A program made the position numbers and the translations under genes. Positions 43,989 through 55,832 of a DNA stretch of 64,000 bases are shown one piece after another. The DNA is taken from the IMG/VR virus record IMGVR_UViG_3300011113_000415; one strand, written 5' to 3'. Below the pieces are notes generated by a model. It was not told the DNA's origin and ran no database searches. It saw only the letters and a program-made list of their open reading frames with translations. Within the stretch, counting starts at the first letter, position 1. The number at the start of each line of letters is the position of its first letter. The DNA is from a virus (lineage: Duplodnaviria; Caudoviricetes).

Positions 43989-44375
43989 ATGGCCTACTCA
44001 GACAAAGTTATAGATCATTATGAAAATCCCCGAAATGTGGGCAGTTTTGCTACTACTGACGATACCGTTGGCACTGGAATGGTCGGGGCACCTGCTTGCG
44101 GGGATGTGATGCGATTGCAGATCAAAGTTGAAGATGGGATCATAACAGATGCAAGATTCAAAACATACGGTTGTGGGTCGGCCATTGCCAGCAGTAGCCT
44201 CGTTACAGAATGGGTCAAAGGTCGAACTCTTGAGGAAGCAGGATCCATACGCAATAGCGAGATTGCTGAAGAACTTGCTCTCCCCCCAGTCAAAATCCAC
44301 TGCTCCATCCTGGCCGAGGATGCCATAAAAGCCGCTGTAGCAGATTATCGCAAGAAGCATGATCTCGCTCACTGA
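43989..44375 (+). CDS. iscU: Fe-S cluster scaffold IscU
   Basis: YSDKVIDHYENPRNVG, GAPACGD, FKTYGCGSAIASSS, LPPVKIHCS. Confidence 0.95.
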   Translation: MAYSDKVIDHYENPRNVGSFATTDDTVGTGMVGAPACGDVMRLQIKVEDGIITDARFKTYGCGSAIASSSLVTEWVKGRTLEEAGSIRNSEIAEELALPPVKIHCSILAEDAIKAAVADYRKKHDLAH

Positions 44376-44682
44376 CACAGCAAGAAACAAAATACAACGA
44401 TTAGTCACAGCCAAAGGCTACGCTGGCATCCGCCTTGGCGTCAAAACTACTGGTTGCTCTGGGCTTGCTTATGTGTTAGAATATGTTAAAGAATACACTG
44501 ACGAACCCTACACAATAAATTACGCACAACCAGGCTTTGTAGTGTTAGTGAACCAAAAAGATGATGTATATCTACGTGGAATGACCGTAGACTATGTGCG
44601 TCAAGGCCTTAACGAGGGATTTGAATTCTCAAATCCCAATGAACGTGACCGTTGCGGTTGCGGAGAAAGTTTTCGAGTGTAA
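44359..44682 (+). CDS. iscA: Fe-S carrier IscA/HesB
   Basis: RLGVKTTGCSGLAY, FSNPN, CGCGESF. Confidence 0.93.
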   Translation: MISLTDTARNKIQRLVTAKGYAGIRLGVKTTGCSGLAYVLEYVKEYTDEPYTINYAQPGFVVLVNQKDDVYLRGMTVDYVRQGLNEGFEFSNPNERDRCGCGESFRV

Positions 44683-46343
44683 TGAAAATAAAATTTTGTT
44701 CCTTGGGTCCTGGACCAAAAACACGTTCTAAAGATAACTTTGCCTCGGTAGCAATTAACCCATCATTTTTTTTCTTTAAAAAGTACTACGAACTGCATGG
44801 TCTAAATCCCAAGGTTGATTGGTTATATCCTGAATTGGTAAAACTTGAACCGGCCCAAGATATTATCCAAAGAATTATTAATGAAAAACCAAATCTGTTG
44901 GGGTTGGGAGTTTATGTTTGGAACAATGATCTACAGTTTTTGATTGCTCAATCAGTGAAAAAACACTTGCCCAACACAATTATAGTGCTAGGGGGTCCTG
45001 ATTTGTCTGTGCATAAAGAGTTAGAACAGGACAATGATTTTTTCAATCAGCATCCATATGTGGACTATGTGGTATATGGTGATGGCGAAAAAGCATTTCA
45101 ACAGATCATTGATTATCATTCAGGCTACATGCCCGATAAACAGACGTTGATAAACACTATTGAAAATTTCAATGGCCACAAAATAGTCTATCCTTATGAA
45201 ATACTCGACGACAAATTGTATTTGAGTCAAAGTCCATTTGTAAGCAATGAGTCATTGATAACGCAAATTAGAGATGATCTAGTCCAGCAAGGCATATCCC
45301 GACGGGAACAAAAATGGTCGATTGAATTTGCTCGTGGTTGCATGTACAGTTGTAGTTTTTGTGATTGGTCTCAAAATCTTACCAAGAAAGTCAAACGAAG
45401 AAGTCATGACTGGAAAGAAGACATTGATTTATTCTGGCGATTAGATGTTCCTGTAAGAGAAACTGATGCCAATTTTGGACAATGGCCGGATGACATTAAG
45501 GCCTACGATTATGCCTGTTCACTGTATGATCCCAAACGGAATTTTTCTTTTGTTGTGGGTAACACTCCAAAACTCAAAAAGCACATTACAGAATATATAA
45601 TATACAAAAATTGCATGGTATATCATAATACAGGACACAGGCCAGCAATAAGTTTTCAGGATACCAATGATGACGTATTATCAGCCGTTGATCGTCCTAG
45701 TGTTTCCTGGGCTGAGATTGTCAAAATGATCAATAATCTCAAAGCAAAATTGAGCCCCGAAGTTTTTGGGTCAATAGAAGCAGAGATGATTCTGGGATTG
45801 CCGGAACAGACCATTGACAAAATAATTCACTCCTGCGTGACATTGTTTGACCTGGGTATCACAAAATATAGATATGATAACTGGTATATGTTGAGCAATA
45901 GTCCAGGTGCTGATCCTACCTATCAAAAAATGTGGGGATTGCAAATACACAATGTATATCAACTGCAAACACCCAAAGCATCAATACTAGACTTAGAATC
46001 GACTTATCAAAATCTAGCACTCAACCAAAGACAGGATAACACCCAGTTGTATGACATGTTTCACAAGGTATCTTTTGTTACAGGTCATAAAAAAATGTCA
46101 CTTATTGAACTTTTAACTGCAAAAATTATGCTGAGAAAATGGAACGAACTCAACCAAATTAAAAATACAGTAGAAAAATACGATTCAACACAGATTAAAA
46201 AAATCTTCAGACGATTGTTGATAGAGGCCATGATAGAATCCAAAAAACAATACAAAATTCATCAACAATATATTGACAAGTACAATATTATAGTTTGGGG
46301 ACACTACGACATCAATCAGAAAATACTTTATGAAGATTTTTGA
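44682..46343 (+). CDS. Cobalamin-binding (class B-type) radical SAM protein
   Basis: LGLGVYVWN..IVLGGP B12-domain features, GDGE, RGCMYSCSFC, DANFG, ILGLP. AT-rich; coupled to iscA (TAATG). Confidence 0.8.
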   Translation: MKIKFCSLGPGPKTRSKDNFASVAINPSFFFFKKYYELHGLNPKVDWLYPELVKLEPAQDIIQRIINEKPNLLGLGVYVWNNDLQFLIAQSVKKHLPNTIIVLGGPDLSVHKELEQDNDFFNQHPYVDYVVYGDGEKAFQQIIDYHSGYMPDKQTLINTIENFNGHKIVYPYEILDDKLYLSQSPFVSNESLITQIRDDLVQQGISRREQKWSIEFARGCMYSCSFCDWSQNLTKKVKRRSHDWKEDIDLFWRLDVPVRETDANFGQWPDDIKAYDYACSLYDPKRNFSFVVGNTPKLKKHITEYIIYKNCMVYHNTGHRPAISFQDTNDDVLSAVDRPSVSWAEIVKMINNLKAKLSPEVFGSIEAEMILGLPEQTIDKIIHSCVTLFDLGITKYRYDNWYMLSNSPGADPTYQKMWGLQIHNVYQLQTPKASILDLESTYQNLALNQRQDNTQLYDMFHKVSFVTGHKKMSLIELLTAKIMLRKWNELNQIKNTVEKYDSTQIKKIFRRLLIEAMIESKKQYKIHQQYIDKYNIIVWGHYDINQKILYEDF

Positions 46344-47108: not shown

Positions 47109-47669
47109 GTGGCAATTGTACAAGTATCCCGAATCACAAACCGTAAAGGTCTAGCAGAAAATGTGCCGCAATTGGCCGGCGCAGAACTTGGCTGGGCAAT
47201 TGATGAACGTAGACTGTTTATCGGCAATGGCACCCTGCAAGAAGGTGCTCCAGTAATCGGCAACACAGAAGTACTCACAGAGTATTCAGATGTGTTCTCG
47301 GGTCGCACACAATTCTCATTTGGTGACTACATTGTAAATGCAGGAACCACTGCCACCTTGGACAACAATGCCACCACTCAAACAGTGTTTACCATTGACG
47401 CCAACACAATCCCAGCATTTGAAGTAAAATACATGATACGCCGTGGTGTGTACACTAGAACTGGCACTTACATTGTGGTAGGCAGTACAGACGGTACAGG
47501 TGGAACATTGACAACTTCTGATGCCAATGCAGTACAAAACGGATCAACCGGGGTCACCTTCACAGTGACTGAAAGCGCCAGCACAATCACATTTGCTTAC
47601 TCCAGCACCAATACTGGTATCACTGGAACTCTTTATTACTCCATCAGTTACTTTTTACCTACAGTTTGA
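47109..47669 (+). CDS. Virion structural protein (tail/neck fibre-type N-terminus)
   Basis: LAGAELGWAIDERRLFIGNG motif; beta-rich; TAAATA at 47079. Confidence 0.6.
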   Translation: MAIVQVSRITNRKGLAENVPQLAGAELGWAIDERRLFIGNGTLQEGAPVIGNTEVLTEYSDVFSGRTQFSFGDYIVNAGTTATLDNNATTQTVFTIDANTIPAFEVKYMIRRGVYTRTGTYIVVGSTDGTGGTLTTSDANAVQNGSTGVTFTVTESASTITFAYSSTNTGITGTLYYSISYFLPTV

Positions 47670-48094
47670 TGTGGCCTGCTACCTTTGAACAACGCCTGCA
47701 TGCGTGGGGTGTTCTTCGTGAAAGTGTTCAACACGCACCTCTTGAACAAGTCCTTGCTGAAGTCAACACCTGGTGGTTTCAAACTCCTTGGCGAGTGTAT
47801 CATTTGCACTGGGATGATCGGACAAAATGGCCTGATCCCTGGGAACTTTTGAGCGACAATATCTATTGCGATCTTGCTCGCGGGCTAGGAATCCTGTATA
47901 CTATAACTTTGCTGGATCGTGCGGATCTGCAAGATTCGGCACTGGTGGAATCAGATCAGGGCAATTTAGTCCTGGTCGAACAAGGGAAATATATATTGAA
48001 TTGGGACTCGCAACAAGTGTTAAATATCAATCCAGGGCAGATCAAAGCCCAGCACAGCGTGACGCAACAACAAATAAAACAACAACTCGGGTAA
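47666..48094 (+). CDS. Conserved hypothetical protein, weakly transglutaminase-like
   Basis: WPDPWELL..N.YCD motif. Confidence 0.5.
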   Translation: MMWPATFEQRLHAWGVLRESVQHAPLEQVLAEVNTWWFQTPWRVYHLHWDDRTKWPDPWELLSDNIYCDLARGLGILYTITLLDRADLQDSALVESDQGNLVLVEQGKYILNWDSQQVLNINPGQIKAQHSVTQQQIKQQLG

Positions 48095-48096
48095 CA

Positions 48097-50415
48097 ATGA
48101 AGCAGATAACAGTACAAAAACGTGACGGAACTCGCGAGCCATTGGCATTGGAAAAATGGCAAGCACAAATAGCCAAGGTGTGTGCAGGCACCGCAGATGT
48201 AAGTCAAAGCATGATTGAAATCAAGGCACAACTGCATTTTTATGATGGCATTACAACAAAAGAAATTGATGGCATTACTTTACGTGCTATTGTAGATTTG
48301 ATTGACGTAGAGTCAAATCCTGATGTGGGCCATACCAACTATCAGTATGTGGCAGGTAAACAACGACTATCAATGTTGCGTAAAGATGTGTACGGTTCAT
48401 ATGATCCACCTCACTTGTATGACATTGTAAAGCGAAATGTGGACACTGGCCTGTACACTCCTGAATTGTTGGAGTGGTATTCTGAAGAAGACTGGAATCG
48501 CATGAATGACATGATTGATCATGCCAAAGACGAACAGTATTCCTATGCCGCAGTGGAACAGTTGATTGAAAAGTATCTTGTGCGTAATCGCTCCACCAAG
48601 GAAATTTATGAAACACCACAAGTCAGATACATGGTTGCCGCAGCCACAGTATTCCACAGCGAAGAACCCAACACAGCCAGAATGCGCTACATCCGAGAGT
48701 ACTATAATGCCGCAAGTGATGGCCTGTTTACTCTTGCTACTCCTGTGCTTGCCGGTCTTGGTACTCCTACAAAGCAGTTTTCAAGTTGTGTGCTTATTCG
48801 CAGTGATGATGATTTGGATAGTATTTTCGCATCAGGTGAGATGATGGCCAAGTATGCCTCAAAGCGAGCAGGCATTGGCTTGGAGATTGGTCGACTACGT
48901 CCCTTAGGCTCGCCCATACGTGGTGGAGAAATCATGCACACCGGCATGATACCATTTTTAAAAAAATGGTTCGGTGATTTACGCTCATGTTCACAAGGTG
49001 GTATTCGTAATGCAAGTGCAACTGTTTTTTATCCCATATGGCATCATCAGTTCGATGACCTTATTGTTCTCAAGAACAATCAAGGTACAGAAGAAACCCG
49101 TGTGCGGCACATGGACTATGGGGTTGTTCTTTCCGCATTTTTCTGGAGACGATTCAAGAACCGAGAAAACATAACATTCTTTGACCCTAACGAAGTACCC
49201 GATCTCTACGAAGCATTCTACGCCAACACTGAACGCTTTGAAAAACTTTATACGGAATACGAGAAGCGTCGAGACCTACGTACCAAAGTAATGAGTGCTG
49301 AAGAAGTGTTCAAGTCAGGCATACTCAAAGAGCGCACTGACACTGGACGCATCTATCTTGTGTTCATTGACAACGTTCAGAATCAAGGACCCTTTGACAC
49401 TGAATATCATACCATTTACCAGAGTAACCTTTGCTGTGAAATTCTGTTACCTACCAAACCGTTTAAAAGACTGGACGATGAAACAGGTCGCATTGCACTA
49501 TGCACCTTGGGATCCATCAACTGGGGTGCGTTCCGTAATCCTGAAGACATGCGTCGTGCTTGCAGGATTCTGCAACGCAGTCTCTGTAACATTCTCGATT
49601 ACCAAGACTTCCTCTCGATCCAGAGCCAACTCTCGAATGACGAAATTCAGCCGCTTGGCATCGGCATTACTAACCTTGCTTACTGGCATGCCAAGCGCGG
49701 ACTGCAATATGGTGATAAAGACGCTCTTGCCGAGGTTAAGTCTTGGATGGAGCACCAGGCCTATTACCTTACCGAAGCAACAGTTGAATTGGCAAAGGAA
49801 CGAGGCCGTTGCAAAGATTCTGACCGGACCTGGTACGGTAAAGGTGTCTTTCCTTGGGAGAGACGTAGCGCCGGGGTCAATGAACTCACGGACTTTACAC
49901 CTGAACTGAACTGGGAAGCCCTACGTGCAGAAATGCGATCCTACGGAGTCAGAAATGCTACACTTATGGCCATTGCTCCTGTTGAAAGTAGTAGTGTGGT
50001 TATTAATAGTACCAATGGTATTGAAATGCCCATGAGTCTTATTTCAGTCAAAGAATCAAAAGCAGGTAGCCTTACACAAGTTGTGCCCGAGTATCACAAA
50101 CTCAAGAACAAGTATCAACTGATGTGGGCACAACGAGACTGTGACGGTTATTTGAAAACTGCGGCTGTGTTGGCAGCCTATGTTGATCAATCAATCTCAA
50201 CAAACACATTCTACAATCCAGCACACTTTGCTGAACGTAAAGTTCCAACAACACTAATTGCCAAGAACTTGATGCAAGCACACTATTGGGGATTGAAAAC
50301 ATTCTACTACAGCCTGATCAACAAGCAAGGTAGCAAACAAAAAGATGAAGAAGCGGCGCCACTTGAAATCATTGATTTTGACGATGCGGAAGACTGCGAA
50401 GCATGTAAGTTATAG
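48097..50415 (+). CDS. nrdA: Ribonucleotide reductase class Ia alpha subunit
   Basis: ATP-cone (VQKRDG), SSCVL, NLCCEI, IAPVESSS, FYYS and C-terminal CEAC. Confidence 0.95.
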   Translation: MKQITVQKRDGTREPLALEKWQAQIAKVCAGTADVSQSMIEIKAQLHFYDGITTKEIDGITLRAIVDLIDVESNPDVGHTNYQYVAGKQRLSMLRKDVYGSYDPPHLYDIVKRNVDTGLYTPELLEWYSEEDWNRMNDMIDHAKDEQYSYAAVEQLIEKYLVRNRSTKEIYETPQVRYMVAAATVFHSEEPNTARMRYIREYYNAASDGLFTLATPVLAGLGTPTKQFSSCVLIRSDDDLDSIFASGEMMAKYASKRAGIGLEIGRLRPLGSPIRGGEIMHTGMIPFLKKWFGDLRSCSQGGIRNASATVFYPIWHHQFDDLIVLKNNQGTEETRVRHMDYGVVLSAFFWRRFKNRENITFFDPNEVPDLYEAFYANTERFEKLYTEYEKRRDLRTKVMSAEEVFKSGILKERTDTGRIYLVFIDNVQNQGPFDTEYHTIYQSNLCCEILLPTKPFKRLDDETGRIALCTLGSINWGAFRNPEDMRRACRILQRSLCNILDYQDFLSIQSQLSNDEIQPLGIGITNLAYWHAKRGLQYGDKDALAEVKSWMEHQAYYLTEATVELAKERGRCKDSDRTWYGKGVFPWERRSAGVNELTDFTPELNWEALRAEMRSYGVRNATLMAIAPVESSSVVINSTNGIEMPMSLISVKESKAGSLTQVVPEYHKLKNKYQLMWAQRDCDGYLKTAAVLAAYVDQSISTNTFYNPAHFAERKVPTTLIAKNLMQAHYWGLKTFYYSLINKQGSKQKDEEAAPLEIIDFDDAEDCEACKL

Positions 50416-50424
50416 TAGGAACCA

Positions 50425-50607
50425 ATGAGCAAGAGAAACAACTCAAAAAAGAAAAAAAGGTATACCCCTGATGAAATTGCAGAATTTAATAGACTTCATG
50501 ATTTAAAAAATCCTGATCCACTTAGCGGTCTTAATTTTCAAACAAGTTATAATTCAAGCGCAGGGCCTGTCAATGCAAAAGTTAGTAAATTTTTTAAGGG
50601 AAAATAA
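50425..50607 (+). CDS. Small basic hypothetical protein
   Basis: AGGA RBS; fills the gap between nrdA and aceA. Confidence 0.45.
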   Translation: MSKRNNSKKKKRYTPDEIAEFNRLHDLKNPDPLSGLNFQTSYNSSAGPVNAKVSKFFKGK

Positions 50608-51816
50608 ATGAAAAAACGAAATTACACACAAGACACTGTTTGCAAACTACAAGGTAGCGTACAGATTGAACACACACTAGCCAAGCGTGGCGCATATAAA
50701 TTGCGTGAACTATTAGCCAACGAACCATACATCAATACACTGGGTGCATACAATGGACAAATGGCTGTACAACACGCCAAGGCAGGATTGAAAGCAATTT
50801 ATTTGTCAGGCTGGCAAGTGGCCGCAGCCAACAACACAGCCAATCAAACTTATCCTGACCAAAGTCTATATCCAGTGGATTCAGTGCCCAAGGTTGTTCG
50901 AGGCATCAATAATGCTTTCCGCCGTGCTGATCAAATTGAATACCTAGAAGGCAAGGTAACAACTGATTACTTTTTGCCTATTGTAGCAGATGCGGAAGCC
51001 GGCTTTGGTGGTGCATTGAACAGTTATGAACTAATGATGGCAATGATCGAAGCCGGAGCCGCCGGTGTACACTTTGAAGACCAATTGAGTTCAGAAAAGA
51101 AATGTGGCCACTTGGGTGGCAAGGTATTAATCCCTACAGGGCAAATGATCCGCACACTCAATGCCGCACGTTTGGCTGCAGATGTTGCAGGAGTAGATAC
51201 AGTTATTATGGCACGTACAGACGCAGAGAGTGCTACACTTATTACTAGCGACCATGATCCATTAGACCGGGAATTTATTATTGATGAACGCACCGAAGAA
51301 GGATTCTACAAATTTAAAAACGGCATTGATGCTTGCATTAGCCGAGGTCTTGCTTATGCCCCTTACGCTGATCTCTTATGGTTTGAAACTTCAACACCTG
51401 ATATTGCACAGGCTAAAAAATTCGCTGATGCTATACACGCACAGTACCCTGATCAAATGCTGGCTTATAATTGCAGTCCTAGTTTTAATTGGCGTAAGTT
51501 TTTAAGCGAAGACGAGTGCGAAACATTCCAACGCGAACTAGGCGAACTAGGATTCAAGTTTCAATTTATCACATTGGCTGGTTTCCACTCAGTGAACCTT
51601 GCCACATTTGAACTTGCTGAAGCATATAAGGCTCGTGGCATGGCGGGTTACGCTGAAATGCAACAACGTGAGTTTGCGGCACAGGCTCGTGGCTTTACTA
51701 CTGTGAAACATCAACGCGAAGTCGGCGTTGGATACTTTGACTTGATCAGCGAAGCAGTGGGTGCTACATCAACAGTGGCCAACAAATCATCAACTGAAGC
51801 GGATCAATTCCATTGA
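50608..51816 (+). CDS. aceA: Isocitrate lyase
   Basis: [26 protein letters not shown], catalytic [34 protein letters not shown]. Confidence 0.95.
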
Positions 51817-52004
51817 ACAGTTTTGAAAGAATATGGGCTCGGGCCACCGGGCACTTGATGGGCAAGTCAGATCATGACCGCCCAGATGTGCCCATACTCA
51901 CACTGAAGGAGGCCCGAATAGCCTTGTTCTTCAAAACGTTTTGGGTTATAATACATGTCATCACCTGTGGTTTTATTATAGCAAATACAATCAGACACTG
52001 GTGA
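51813..52004 (+). CDS. Small membrane protein
   Basis: 63 aa with a C-terminal hydrophobic segment; coupled to aceA. Confidence 0.55.
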
Positions 52005-52019
52005 AACTGAGTAAAATTT

Positions 52020-53159
52020 ATGAATTCAAAAACTTTTTGTTTGGCTCCTTGGGTCAATACCTGTGTTCTGCCTTCGGGACATTTGACGCCGTGTTGTGTT
52101 TGGCAAGAAACGTCAGATGCAACTTTTAAAGATTTTGATACTTGGCATAATTCGGACTATTTGAAAAACATTAGAAAGCGCATGTATCAAGGCGAAAAAA
52201 TTTCAGCCTGTGCCACATGTTGGCATGATGAAAGTATTGGAAAAGAAAGTCTAAGACAAATTTATAACCAAGAATGGTCAAAATTCTCTGTGAGAGATAT
52301 TATCAATAAAAATTGGCATGCTTCACACGGCGTTTGTGCGTTGGATTTAAAATTAGGAAATTTGTGCAATTTAAAATGTGTCATGTGTTCTCCTTCATCA
52401 AGTAGCCAATTGCTTTCTGAATACAAAACAAATACTACAAAATTTAACAATTTGAAATATTATGCTGTCAACTTTTTGGAAAAAGATTTTTCGTGGCCAT
52501 TGACTGATGATTTCAAAGATTTTTTAAAAAAATTCCAAAATCAATTACGGTGGATTAAATTCACTGGAGGTGAACCTACAATTATACCACATGTATTAGA
52601 TGTATTGGACAACTTGAATTGCGATAAAGTCACAGTGACCTTGGCAACCAATGGTACCAGACTTGATCAGCAATTTGTAGACAAGATTAAAAAATTTCAA
52701 ACAGTTTGGCTGACTGTGAGTCTTGAAGGTATACAAGAACATAATGATCAAATTAGATTTTTATCCCAATGGGAAGAGATTGAAAAAAACATTTTATCTG
52801 TTTATAATTTGCCAAACATCTATTTTAGCATTAATCATGTTTTGCAATGTTTTAGTGTGAATACCTTTATACCTTTGTTACAATGGTGTGAAAAATATCA
52901 AATTAAATTAGATGTAAATGTATTATCAAAACCTGAGTATCTAAGCATAAATGCAGTAGGTGTAAATATCATTGAGAAGTTTATAAATCAATTAAAGCAA
53001 ACGCATGTGACAACTAACCACCAGGTTATTCCGCATGTGCTTGGACATTTGAGTAATTATTCATACCGTCCTGATCTTGAAAAACAGCGACACGAATATT
53101 TGCAATTGTTAGATTCAATTAGGCATACAAATACAGATAATATTATTGAGGGTAAATAG
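52020..53159 (+). CDS. Radical SAM protein with N-terminal twitch-like domain
   Basis: FCLAPW, PCC, ACATCW, CNLKCVMC, TGGEP, TNG, SLEG. AT-rich. Confidence 0.88.
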   Translation: MNSKTFCLAPWVNTCVLPSGHLTPCCVWQETSDATFKDFDTWHNSDYLKNIRKRMYQGEKISACATCWHDESIGKESLRQIYNQEWSKFSVRDIINKNWHASHGVCALDLKLGNLCNLKCVMCSPSSSSQLLSEYKTNTTKFNNLKYYAVNFLEKDFSWPLTDDFKDFLKKFQNQLRWIKFTGGEPTIIPHVLDVLDNLNCDKVTVTLATNGTRLDQQFVDKIKKFQTVWLTVSLEGIQEHNDQIRFLSQWEEIEKNILSVYNLPNIYFSINHVLQCFSVNTFIPLLQWCEKYQIKLDVNVLSKPEYLSINAVGVNIIEKFINQLKQTHVTTNHQVIPHVLGHLSNYSYRPDLEKQRHEYLQLLDSIRHTNTDNIIEGK

Positions 53160-53162
53160 ATA

Positions 53163-54263
53163 ATGAGTCAAGCACAATACAATTTAAAACAAAAAACAGA
53201 TTATCTCAGTCGCAAGATGTTCTTGGATCCAGCAGGTCCAGTAACAGTACAACGATTTGAAGAAGTCAAGTACAACAAACTGGTCAAGTACGAACAAGAA
53301 GCACGTGGCTTCTTTTGGGTGCCAGAAGAAATCTCTTTGACCAAAGACGCACAAGACTTTAAAGATGCATCAGAAACTGTACGTCATATCTTTACATCAA
53401 ACTTGTTGCGGCAAACGGCCTTGGATAGTTTGCAAGGTCGAGGACCCAGTCAAATCTTTACACCTGTGATTTCGATTCCTGAACTGGAAAGTCTTGTGTA
53501 CAACTGGACATTCTTTGAAACCAACATTCACAGTCGCAGTTACAGCCACATCATTCGCAACATCTACAATGTGCCCAAGGATGTGTTCAACACAATCCAT
53601 GACACACAAGAAATCGTTGACATGGCGTCAAGTGTGGGCAATTACTATGATCGACTACACATGATCAACTGTCGCAAAGAGTTACTGGAAGAGTTTCCAG
53701 AACGTGAACACATCAAGGCAGTTTGGTTGGCACTCAATGCCTCCTATGCTTTAGAAGCGTTCCGCTTTATGGTTAGTTTTGCTACAAGTTTGGCAATGGT
53801 TGAGAACAAGATCTTTATTGGCAACGGCAACATTATTCAGTTGATCTTGCAAGATGAACTGCTACACAAAGAGTGGACTGGGTGGTTGATCAATCAAGTA
53901 GTCAAAGAGGACACACGTTTTGCGGCCGTTAAGACTGAATGTGAAGCGGAAGTATACCAAATGTATCTAGATGTGATTCGCGAGGAAAAAGCCTGGGCTG
54001 ACTATTTGTTCAACAAAGGTCCTGTGATTGGTCTTAATGCAAACATTCTCAAAGACTTTGTGGACTTCACAGCATTCAACGCTCTCAAAGAGATTGGAAT
54101 CAAGTACACAGAAGAACACCCACGTTCAACACCCATTCCTTGGTTTACCAAACACGTGGACACCAGCAAGAAACAAACTGCACTCCAAGAGTCAGAATCG
54201 ACTAACTATGTTATTGGAGTGATGTCCGATCAACTGGATTACGAGGAGTTACCTGATCTATGA
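53163..54263 (+). CDS. nrdB: Ribonucleotide reductase class Ia beta subunit
   Basis: FFWVPEE, LDSLQ, ETNIHSRSY, LEAFRF, DELLH, QESE..NY. Confidence 0.95.
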   Translation: MSQAQYNLKQKTDYLSRKMFLDPAGPVTVQRFEEVKYNKLVKYEQEARGFFWVPEEISLTKDAQDFKDASETVRHIFTSNLLRQTALDSLQGRGPSQIFTPVISIPELESLVYNWTFFETNIHSRSYSHIIRNIYNVPKDVFNTIHDTQEIVDMASSVGNYYDRLHMINCRKELLEEFPEREHIKAVWLALNASYALEAFRFMVSFATSLAMVENKIFIGNGNIIQLILQDELLHKEWTGWLINQVVKEDTRFAAVKTECEAEVYQMYLDVIREEKAWADYLFNKGPVIGLNANILKDFVDFTAFNALKEIGIKYTEEHPRSTPIPWFTKHVDTSKKQTALQESESTNYVIGVMSDQLDYEELPDL

Positions 54264-54691
54264 GAAACTTAATTAATTTAATGGAAGACCAAGGAGTTAC
54301 TGACGCTTGGTTTCAAGATGGCGGCTTTGAAACATACAAAAAAGACTTGCCTGTGATATATGCTACTGCGGAAACTCCTGGTATAATAAACACTCTAGAA
54401 AATCCTGTAGGGTATCAAGCAGGATACAAAATTATAACAGGACCCAACGGTGAACAGTATCCGATACCTCCAGAGAAATTTGCCGGCCTGTATGATGACA
54501 ACAAGGATGGCACAGCCACTCCTAAGAAGATCATCAAGATGGCCAAGTTAGCAGATAACAGTGGATCAGTTAAAACCTCATGGGGTGAGACTTTGAACTA
54601 CACTCGAGGTAATGACTACATTGTGCGTCATGGCCCTGGAGACTATGGCGTGGTCAAAAAAGATATCTTCCCTAAGACATACCAAACATAA
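54260..54691 (+). CDS. PGDYG-motif protein
   Basis: HGPGDYG motif near the C-terminus, TSWGE; N-terminal MRNLINLME leader. Confidence 0.6.
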   Translation: MRNLINLMEDQGVTDAWFQDGGFETYKKDLPVIYATAETPGIINTLENPVGYQAGYKIITGPNGEQYPIPPEKFAGLYDDNKDGTATPKKIIKMAKLADNSGSVKTSWGETLNYTRGNDYIVRHGPGDYGVVKKDIFPKTYQT

Positions 54692-54710
54692 CAACTATAA
54701 GGAGAACATT

Positions 54711-54941
54711 ATGAAAGCCATTGTATGGTCAAAGAATCACTGCCCCTATTGCGATCAAGCCAAGAACTTGCTCAAACTAAAAGGCATTGAATATGAAGAA
54801 CGCAACATCAACGACGGTTGGGACAAAGAAGATTTGCTGGCGGCTGTACCAGGCGCGAGAACAGTGCCACAAATTTTTCTAGACGAGGAATTGGTGGGCG
54901 GATTTACAGAACTAAAGAAAAGGTTAACAGATGCTACTTGA
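54711..54941 (+). CDS. Glutaredoxin
   Basis: CPYC active site, TVPQIF, GG; AAGGAG RBS; next to nrdB. Confidence 0.92.
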   Translation: MKAIVWSKNHCPYCDQAKNLLKLKGIEYEERNINDGWDKEDLLAAVPGARTVPQIFLDEELVGGFTELKKRLTDAT

Positions 54942-55258: not shown

Positions 55259-55474
55259 ATGGGACATCGCTTTGTGATCATGCAGGATGATACGTTGTAT
55301 GAATACACAGAATATGATCAGATTCCTAATGAATTTGATCATGTGATTGAATTTGCTCCTGAAATTCCGCCCGGTCCTCATACTGACGAACAGCATGATG
55401 AAATTGATCAGTGGCAAGTTAAGTTTAGTAGATTAATGGAAATAGAATATGCCAGCAGCCGCAAGAAAGAATGA
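55259..55474 (+). CDS. Hypothetical late protein
   Basis: TAAATA 4 nt upstream. Confidence 0.55.
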   Translation: MGHRFVIMQDDTLYEYTEYDQIPNEFDHVIEFAPEIPPGPHTDEQHDEIDQWQVKFSRLMEIEYASSRKKE

Positions 55475-55832
55475 TAAATGTGTGCCTCACTGTTCACCTT
55501 TTAACATAAAAGGCGCCAGCACCAGTGTGTTCGTAAACAACAAAGGGGCATCTCGTGTGGGAGATCCAGTTGTGCCACACAAAGAAGGCGGAGGTGCCGC
55601 TGGAGCAGCCGGAACAGCGGCATCCATAGGATCAAGTTTTGCACCGCCACCATACAGCGTTGCAATTGCAGTTGTTGGAAAATTAGTAAAGTGTAAAAAT
55701 CACGCTCCAAGCATTGCAACAGGATCAAGTTCAGTTTTTATCAACGGAAAAGCAGCCGCGTTTGTTGGCAGTAGTATAACTGGATGCACCAGTGTTGCGG
55801 CCGGTAGCACAACTGTTTTTATTGGTAAGTAA
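55449..55832 (+). CDS. PAAR-repeat spike-tip protein (T4 gp5.4-like)
   Basis: MPAAAR, SVFVNNK.ASRVGD, GSSSVFINGK, AAGSTTVFIG; Cys/His metal ligands. Confidence 0.85.
   Translation: MPAAARKNDKCVPHCSPFNIKGASTSVFVNNKGASRVGDPVVPHKEGGGAAGAAGTAASIGSSFAPPPYSVAIAVVGKLVKCKNHAPSIATGSSSVFINGKAAAFVGSSITGCTSVAAGSTTVFIGK

Follow-up and report, generated by a model that had tools for sequence, protein, structure and literature searches.

Why would a phage carry an isocitrate lyase (ICL), the enzyme of the first step of the glyoxylate bypass, between the two genes of its ribonucleotide reductase (RNR)? The question is raised by a stretch of 64,000 nucleotides (here called the window) from the IMG/VR record IMGVR_UViG_3300011113_000415 (Duplodnaviria; Caudoviricetes), which is part of a 334,901-bp contig of an uncultured freshwater giant phage and is phage DNA with genes for helicases, DnaB, a ligase and a virion protein. 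On its plus strand an aceA-type ICL gene (50608..51816) encoding 402 amino acids lies between nrdA and nrdB, in the company of two micro open reading frames (ORFs) and a radical SAM gene. A first-pass annotation, made from the letters alone, had proposed that the ICL is co-expressed with RNR and redirects host carbon toward nucleotide precursors. The reading that we favour, and regard as probable, is that the gene encodes a competent phage ICL, carried as an accessory cassette of an old, virus-only lineage, which would open the glyoxylate branch independently of the host.

Identity and integrity of the phage isocitrate lyase

Judged by its sequence, the protein is a genuine and intact isocitrate lyase, and it is predicted to be active. 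It scores 681.4 bits against the NCBIfam equivalog NF011645 (cut-off 562), 543 bits against TIGR01346 (cut-off 276) and 339.6 bits against Pfam PF00463 (cut-off 26; 3.9e-101). The best match in the PDB is 6lrp (5e-168), in which residues 36-436 of the chain align with residues 4-402 of the phage protein at about 65% identity over the full length, and the alignment reaches the last residue (...STEADQFH). The KKCGH motif with the active-site cysteine, QREV, NCSPSFNW and the other signature motifs are all present, including those that bind the metal and the substrate in the M. tuberculosis and E. coli structures. Nine signature motifs are intact in all 59 distinct viral sequences, and KKCGH is retained in these as well as in the cellular sequences (19/19). 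The first-pass description of an intact 402-residue AceA with KKCGH and the other family motifs is thereby borne out, since every ICL family cut-off is passed and every motif is found.

Methylisocitrate lyase and phosphoenolpyruvate (PEP) mutase had been named at the outset as functions that the protein might have instead, and the family models bear on both. Models of prpB and PEP mutase do give weak secondary matches, and a methylisocitrate side activity is described for some ICLs (PMC11982470). However, the prpB models TIGR02317 (111.7 bits, cut-off 354) and NF008455 (94.2 bits, cut-off 353) stay far below their thresholds and match residues 30-209 only, whereas the ICL equivalog lies well above its own threshold; the ICL-type motifs, including KKCGH and NCSPSFNW, are invariant; and the protein aligns over its full length with solved ICLs and not with the methylisocitrate lyases of about 295 amino acids. 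Another function within the ICL/PEP-mutase superfamily, such as that of a 2-methylisocitrate lyase, is accordingly given a very small chance.

A short N-terminus and a virus-only lineage

The N-terminus had been noted as shorter than that of E. coli AceA, and the difference is real. All 17 cellular ICLs compared carry some 16 to 45 further N-terminal residues, comprising helix alpha1 and, in most, a W..NPRW segment, and the window ICL is without both. Every viral protein starts with MKKR(N/D)Y at the position where cellular enzymes read ...GI(K/E)RPY(S/T), and the substitutions W33R and L48Y are specific to the viral clade. As the N-terminal segment is a common cellular feature and not a catalytic requirement, the missing alpha1 marks a variant and does not exclude the protein from the ICLs.

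In a maximum-likelihood (ML) tree, 30 jumbo-phage ICLs and that of Phage C48C1 form one clade (SH-aLRT 99, stem 0.54) that stands apart from the enzymes of Actinomycetota, Alpha-, Beta- and Gammaproteobacteria, Bacillota, Chloroflexota and Bacteroidota, and no cellular group is sister to it in that tree. No cellular ICL more than 68% identical is found in species-representative genomes or in plasmids and chromids (the best reach 60-68%), in a comparison whose pattern-based genome scan is biased towards Streptomyces; ICLs of plasmids and chromids from many phyla are all 60-67% identical to the window ICL. Further clusters of ICLs with a short N-terminus occur at 54-86% identity, among which P0161 groups with C48C1. 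When divergent representatives of 50% clusters are included in a second tree, the backbone collapses, and a single origin of all short-N forms is not rejected by the approximately unbiased (AU) test (p = 0.46).

The lineage is common among uncultured phages. More than 120 protein clusters at 91-96% identity are present in a large protein collection, on contigs of up to 339 kb, and a search of IMG/VR gave 192 viral contigs with an ICL, from which 80 loci with 89-95% amino acid identity were kept. Among the 50,697 deposited phage records of INPHARED there is one genuine match, Phage C48C1, and a megablast of the window from 44 to 58 kb against deposited phages gives no match. The remark that ICL is an uncommon phage auxiliary gene thus fits deposited genomes but not uncultured phages, where in addition to the IMG/VR contigs a preprint lists 98 huge phages with the gene (see below). 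Among isolated phages, the closest nrdA genes (54-60% identity) belong to T4-like phages of Xanthomonas, Ralstonia and Stenotrophomonas.

Several of the other INPHARED matches (H2-H9) are bacterial contigs or fragments and are not to be counted as phage ICLs. They include Salmonella whole-genome shotgun contigs and contigs of 'Acinetobacter phage MD-2021a' that carry aceA together with prpB; 'phage' records of 1.8-4.5 kb are 60% identical to the window ICL, like enterobacterial aceA.

Selection and divergence

Measured against the 80 related loci, the ICL gene has a DNA identity of 75-83%, a pS of 0.57-0.79, which is near saturation, and an omega of 0.03-0.06 (about 0.04). The range of amino acid identity, 89-95%, compares with 67-94% for the flanking nrdA and 72-92% for nrdB. 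The ICL is under very strong purifying selection, and lying in a phage genome, flanked by RNR genes, with an omega of this order, it is a phage auxiliary metabolic gene. Recent horizontal spread was considered as a source of the high ICL identity and was rejected because synonymous sites are nearly saturated.

Divergence of nrdA follows that of nrdB closely (Spearman 0.86), whereas the divergence of ICL is not significantly correlated with either (rho about 0.2). At L003, for example, ICL is 95% identical but nrdA only 67%, and at L020 nrdA is 94% identical (dS 0.53) but ICL 91% (dS 1.09).

The nrdA-nrdB gap as a cargo slot

The arrangement in the window is that of a tightly packed plus-strand run (47.6-55 kb) in which nrdA, m1, ICL, m2, the radical SAM gene and nrdB follow each other with intergenic spacings of -4 to 15 nt. 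The first-pass annotation had described the nrdA-nrdB pair as split by ICL, two micro-ORFs and a radical SAM gene, and each of these elements was found where it had been placed. The nrdA gene (48097..50415) encodes a class I ribonucleotide reductase large subunit of 772 amino acids (Pfam ATP-cone, Ribonuc_red_lgN and lgC, 1.5e-108), and nrdB (53163..54263) the small subunit (Pfam Ribonuc_red_sm, 3.5e-40).

Is the position beside RNR a property of ICL or of the gap? The 80 ICL-bearing loci show three settings: most read nrdA-ICL-nrdB, six read nrdA-nrdB-ICL, and about 27 lack RNR within 10 kb. A control sample of 80 loci was picked by nrdA alone (86-95% identity), and among the 72 that contain both RNR genes ICL lies beside RNR in five, four with the order nrdA-ICL-nrdB and one with nrdA-nrdB-ICL. 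The others are without ICL there, with a gap of less than 300 nt in 31 of the 72, a gap of 300-1000 nt in 21, and more than 1 kb of other cargo in 15. What the gap holds in relatives is nothing, m2, a radical SAM gene, a methyltransferase, IscA/IscU or genes without an assigned function. In a 97%-complete relative of 338 kb, whose nrdA is 88% identical, ICL lies about 23 kb from RNR, beside a desaturase, and no ICL is found in two relatives that are 72-75% complete. Because its content varies so widely among nrdA relatives, the nrdA-nrdB gap is a general and probably recombination-prone cargo slot between conserved gene ends, of which the window genome holds three cargo items, and ICL is an optional, mobile accessory cassette among related freshwater T4-like jumbo phages. 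Exchange would take place by recombination between the conserved 3′ end of nrdA and the conserved 5′ end of nrdB.

The companions of ICL in the slot have histories of their own. The small gene m2 (51813..52004) encodes 63 amino acids with a C-terminal hydrophobic helix and begins at a TTG that overlaps the stop codon of ICL (cATTGA). Copies that are 79-95% identical occur in relatives, directly after ICL or directly after nrdA, including the closest relatives, which lack ICL: in L167-L172 nrdA is followed by m2 and then, where the locus extends far enough, by a short stretch and nrdB. Since m2 follows nrdA in these ICL-less relatives, it is a resident of the slot and not a companion of ICL, and its sequence marks it as a conserved small protein of the RNR operon, predicted to lie in the membrane. 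The m2 homologues, which are also seen in L175, L179 and L182, have 53-65 amino acids, a W(R)xWAKALGEK...IRHW pattern and the C-terminal hydrophobic helix, and a stop/start overlap of m2 with nrdA is seen in the closest relatives without ICL.

The radical SAM gene (52020..53159) encodes a twitch-domain protein of the NF033640 family (278 bits) and has a GC content of 0.318 against about 0.44 nearby. None of the 80 ICL-bearing loci has it, not even L020, which is the closest; a lake contig from run X22 joins position 52002 to 53163 and so has the arrangement of the window minus this gene. The nearest homologues, 67-69% identical, stand in nrdA-radical SAM-nrdB loci without ICL. The ICL-less carriers and the X22 variant indicate that the radical SAM gene is cargo whose presence or absence is independent of ICL. 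Examples of the ICL-less order are L164:1-3470, L165:1-3550 and L166, where nrdA is 83% identical.

The third small item, m1 (50425..50607), is a lysine-rich micro-ORF of 60 amino acids without a family match. At the same junction other relatives have unrelated small ORFs or nothing, and no homologue at E<=1 is found in 2.09 Mb of related viral loci, so that m1 is an orphan and perhaps no genuine gene. It was also considered as a split-off N-terminus of ICL, a candidate that was rejected because m1 has no ICL-like W..NPRW and the ICL of relatives starts 10-13 nt after nrdA.

Isocitrate lyase away from ribonucleotide reductase

In the roughly 27 loci without RNR, ICL is usually coupled to a truncated desaturase of the DesA family. 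The desaturase has about 236 amino acids, matches positions 11-241 of the 385-position model NF049918 and scores 399 bits against a cut-off of 400; it is translationally coupled to ICL at L006:6442-7152, L019:11209-11910 and 26 further loci. In loci without RNR a conserved late-type motif, ATAAATAC, lies upstream of ICL. A further setting is found on a viral contig of 167 kb (L065:11219-15077), where the genes after ICL are, in order, boxB, encoding the benzoyl-CoA epoxidase subunit BoxB at full length (875 bits, cut-off 499), a class II aldolase gene, one further gene and a serine hydroxymethyltransferase (SHMT) gene, the last lying 2.7 kb downstream of ICL.

More distantly related is P0137, an ICL of 382 amino acids with a short N-terminus that is 54% identical to the window protein. 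It is encoded on a phage-like JGI metagenome contig of 19.9 kb with its genes on one strand (L250:8001-16199), and its neighbours are ThyA, DHFR, FolD, a formyltransferase and glycosyltransferases.

Assembly, habitat and transcription

A 6.4-kb stretch of the window was searched for in sequencing runs. Viral and lake-water metagenomes of two studies contain 0.95-0.99 of its sampled words, and three of these four runs may be the source samples; river and freshwater runs from two further studies contain 0.32-0.65. These figures bear on the possibility of an assembly chimera, that is of bacterial DNA mis-joined to a phage contig, which had been raised with the first-pass annotation and which gains some colour from the fact that ICL is a typical cellular gene and that several 'phage' database matches are bacterial contigs. 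A chimera is ruled out, to within a negligible chance, by the recurrence of the nrdA-ICL-nrdB order in dozens of independent viral contigs and by the presence of the stretch nearly whole in the runs of two studies and in part in those of two more; contamination with host DNA is opposed as well by the lack of any ICL above 68% identity in the cellular genomes searched, and by neighbouring phage genes whose stops and starts abut or overlap ICL.

Consensus scans of 46-56 kb find promoter-like and terminator-like sites no more often than expected by chance or in shuffled sequence; the best promoter-like site falls inside the radical SAM gene, and no T4 late box TATAAATA occurs in this region. Given the short spacings and the lack of excess promoter or terminator sites, co-transcription of ICL with RNR is plausible, and transcripts of the long plus-strand run with the RNR genes probably extend through ICL. 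None of the listed runs that contain the 6.4-kb stretch is on record as RNA, and a gene-level search of RNA data returns small shares only (0.06-0.07).

Malate synthase

Of the second enzyme of the shunt there is no trace, as the first-pass annotation had remarked for the window. With three cellular malate synthases as queries, tblastn finds none in the window or in the 2.09 Mb of viral loci, in a search whose positive control worked, and PF01274 is absent from relatives of 374 kb (100% complete) and 338 kb (97% complete). Malate synthase is present in 5/5 cellular ICL genomes tested. A complete glyoxylate-shunt module, that is aceB or glcB together with aceA, is thus found neither in the window nor in the loci and relatives searched, and since the phage thus appears to supply no malate synthase, any completion of the bypass would have to use an enzyme of the host.

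What the enzyme may do during infection

In the sequence of events that we propose, the phage would make ICL during infection and host isocitrate would be cleaved to succinate and glyoxylate, so that the first step of the glyoxylate bypass would be opened independently of the host's control of aceA. The glyoxylate would then be condensed with acetyl-CoA to malate by a host enzyme, or would enter another host route. Among potential hosts, Polynucleobacter has aceA, iclR and glcB (PMC7522526). Over longer times the cassette would move among at least three settings, namely the nrdA-nrdB gap, the position after nrdB, and a late-promoter module with a DesA-like desaturase, while m1 and the radical SAM gene would be unrelated cargo and m2 the native resident of the slot. 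The identity and intactness of the enzyme, the selection on it, its clade, its mobility and the absence of a malate synthase from the DNA searched are direct observations. Several points weigh on the other side. Activity, here for the whole lineage, the use of the products and co-transcription are deduced from sequence, and a host malate synthase is assumed. Acetylation of K13 in helix alpha1 destabilises the tetramer of E. coli ICL and inhibits the enzyme (PMC13140717), and since alpha1 matters there, the alpha1-less viral ICL may differ in assembly or kinetics. Because the identity range of ICL is narrow (89-95%), its lack of correlation with nrdA could in part reflect constraint rather than exchange. 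Finally, contigs from one freshwater metatranscriptome (X23) are 80-95% alike, and mostly less than 90%, over nrdA, ICL and nrdB; they represent relatives present in an RNA library, which can hold DNA, and the missing cover over m1 and the radical SAM gene is uninformative.

How much does the neighbourhood of RNR say about function? If ICL stood with RNR because its products feed deoxynucleotide (dNTP) synthesis, succinate and malate would pass by way of oxaloacetate and aspartate to pyrimidines and purines, or glyoxylate would be aminated to glycine and pass on to purines and to folate one-carbon (C1) units for dTMP. ICL does belong to the RNR run in the window, as it does in about 50 of the 80 ICL-bearing loci, the gene spacing permits co-transcription, and the SHMT downstream of ICL in L065 and the position of P0137 among ThyA, DHFR, FolD and formyltransferase are weak hints of a nucleotide or C1 link. 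However, the slot is generic, with 67 of the 72 nrdA-matched relatives having no ICL there and other cargo in its place; the RNR-free loci put ICL with the DesA-like desaturase and the late-type motif; and neither an aminotransferase nor a glycine-cleavage gene is seen beside ICL. Bypass of isocitrate dehydrogenase would also lower the supply of NADPH, which RNR ultimately needs. A dedicated nucleotide-supply module is for these reasons unlikely. What stands of the first-pass proposal is that co-transcription with RNR is plausible from the spacing; a specific functional coupling is not supported, given the 5/72 and the ICLs elsewhere with a late motif. The coupling to RNR is positional, and a functional link is weakly supported, because the slot is generic and holds ICL in a minority of cases, and many relatives place ICL in a late, lipid-related module.

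The solitary state of ICL, without malate synthase even in complete relatives, would also suit a phage that withdraws isocitrate from isocitrate dehydrogenase and from the formation of 2-oxoglutarate, with less NADH and respiratory oxidative stress as one effect, or less 2-oxoglutarate as a nitrogen signal as another, and malate synthase unneeded for either. Oxidative stress and iron stress are known to induce the glyoxylate shunt, iscU and iscA are close by in the window and stand between nrdA and ICL in L002, L036 and L060, and genes for a NifU-like protein and a peroxiredoxin are found near the ICL of C48C1; in Polynucleobacter the shunt is induced by UV (PMC7522526). This evidence from gene neighbourhood is circumstantial, and glyoxylate that is not consumed would be toxic, so that rewiring of redox, iron or signalling is decidedly improbable. 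A broader and tentative possibility, which we would not put above a minority chance, is that the alpha1-less ICL is an old, virus-adapted and deregulated isocitrate drain whose product use varies by module. Such an enzyme, having shed its regulatory helix, would be shared by the T4-like jumbo phages of freshwater, Kyanoviridae, P0161 and perhaps P0137, and would be placed either early with dNTP and C1 genes or late with a lipid desaturase.

The reading of a competent accessory ICL that opens the glyoxylate branch has some wider consequences. Phage ICL, so far an entry in catalogues, is here a coherent virus-only lineage with a defined structural difference. The protein is among the most conserved of its neighbourhood, above ribonucleotide reductase, yet it is optional and comes without malate synthase, a combination that speaks for a genuine effect on fitness in certain hosts or lakes. 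Function is not to be read from position where a gap is as general as that between nrdA and nrdB. The 402-residue enzyme, the natural variants with and without ICL, and the early versus late contexts offer material for experiments.

Neighbouring genes

Upstream of nrdA lies an ORF of 142 amino acids (cluster c6; 47666..48094, plus strand) that has no assigned function and no Pfam match and precedes nrdA in 30 related loci; its stop lies 2 nt before the nrdA ATG. The start of nrdA is most likely this ATG at 48097, since the resulting MKQITVQK start agrees with that of relatives of 771-774 amino acids, and the listed ORF from the TTG at 47866 would be an over-extension. Further upstream, 4 kb before nrdA, iscU and iscA, encoding an Fe-S scaffold and carrier (43989-44682), are followed by a B12-binding radical SAM gene (all within 43989-46343); iscA-iscU is the pair that separates nrdA from ICL in the three relatives named above.

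Downstream of nrdB and on the same strand, a PGDYG-domain protein (54260..54691; PF14083, 4.4e-07) is found at the same place 3′ of nrdB in several relatives. It is followed by a glutaredoxin (54612..54941; PF00462, 3.3e-15, domain residues 37-95), a usual partner of RNR genes that lies 3′ of nrdB in nearly all relatives and whose translation probably begins at an internal ATG near 54690. After the RNR and glutaredoxin run comes a PAAR-motif protein (55449-55832; PF05488, 5.8e-15; cluster c5), which is conserved in relatives.

Comparison with known systems

Extra genes between nrdA and nrdB have a precedent in T4-type phages, where they likewise come and go between relatives, the homing-endonuclease gene mobE of T4 being an example of a variable gene at this position. 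No homing endonuclease has been identified beside ICL in the loci examined, which is a difference from mobE of T4.

With cellular AceA/ICL1 (E. coli 1IGW, M. tuberculosis 1F61, PDB 6LRP) the phage enzyme shares the family, the length class, an identity of about 60-68% over the catalytic body, and KKCGH, the metal- and substrate-binding motifs and the C-terminal tail. It differs in lacking alpha1 and W..NPRW, in W33R and L48Y, in belonging to a separate virus-only clade, and in having neither aceB nor aceK adjacent, whereas aceB is adjacent in four of ten cellular aceA loci. CDS0055 of Phage C48C1 (OQ984149, Kyanoviridae) belongs to the same clade, being 64% identical with an MKKRDY start, W33R and L48Y; C48C1 differs in being a T4-like phage of 156 kb with another neighbourhood, no RNR beside ICL, and a long branch (1.09). 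The C48C1 gene (L001:8001-9242) is annotated as a 'hypothetical protein', and a few kb at most separate it from the NifU-like and peroxiredoxin genes.

Phage ICLs as such, including those of freshwater huge phages without malate synthase, are already known. A preprint of 2025 gives 98 ICL genes in 98 huge phages, with malate synthase in 22, none of them freshwater (bioRxiv 10.1101/2025.02.27.640493), and its freshwater huge phages resemble the present one in carrying ICL without malate synthase and in being large and uncultured. An aceBA operon is reported from a Tara viral genome (PMC5332604), in which aceB adjoins aceA, unlike in the jumbo-phage ICL lineage; aceAB is reported from Pacific viromes (PMC4053976). 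The accessible parts of these earlier reports catalogue presence, and no mention of an alpha1-less lineage, the selection regime or the shifting position is made in them. The gene in the RNR slot is a further member of this known set, and the alpha1-less, virus-specific lineage, the very strong constraint and the shifts between early and late modules appear, relative to the literature searched, to be described here for the first time.

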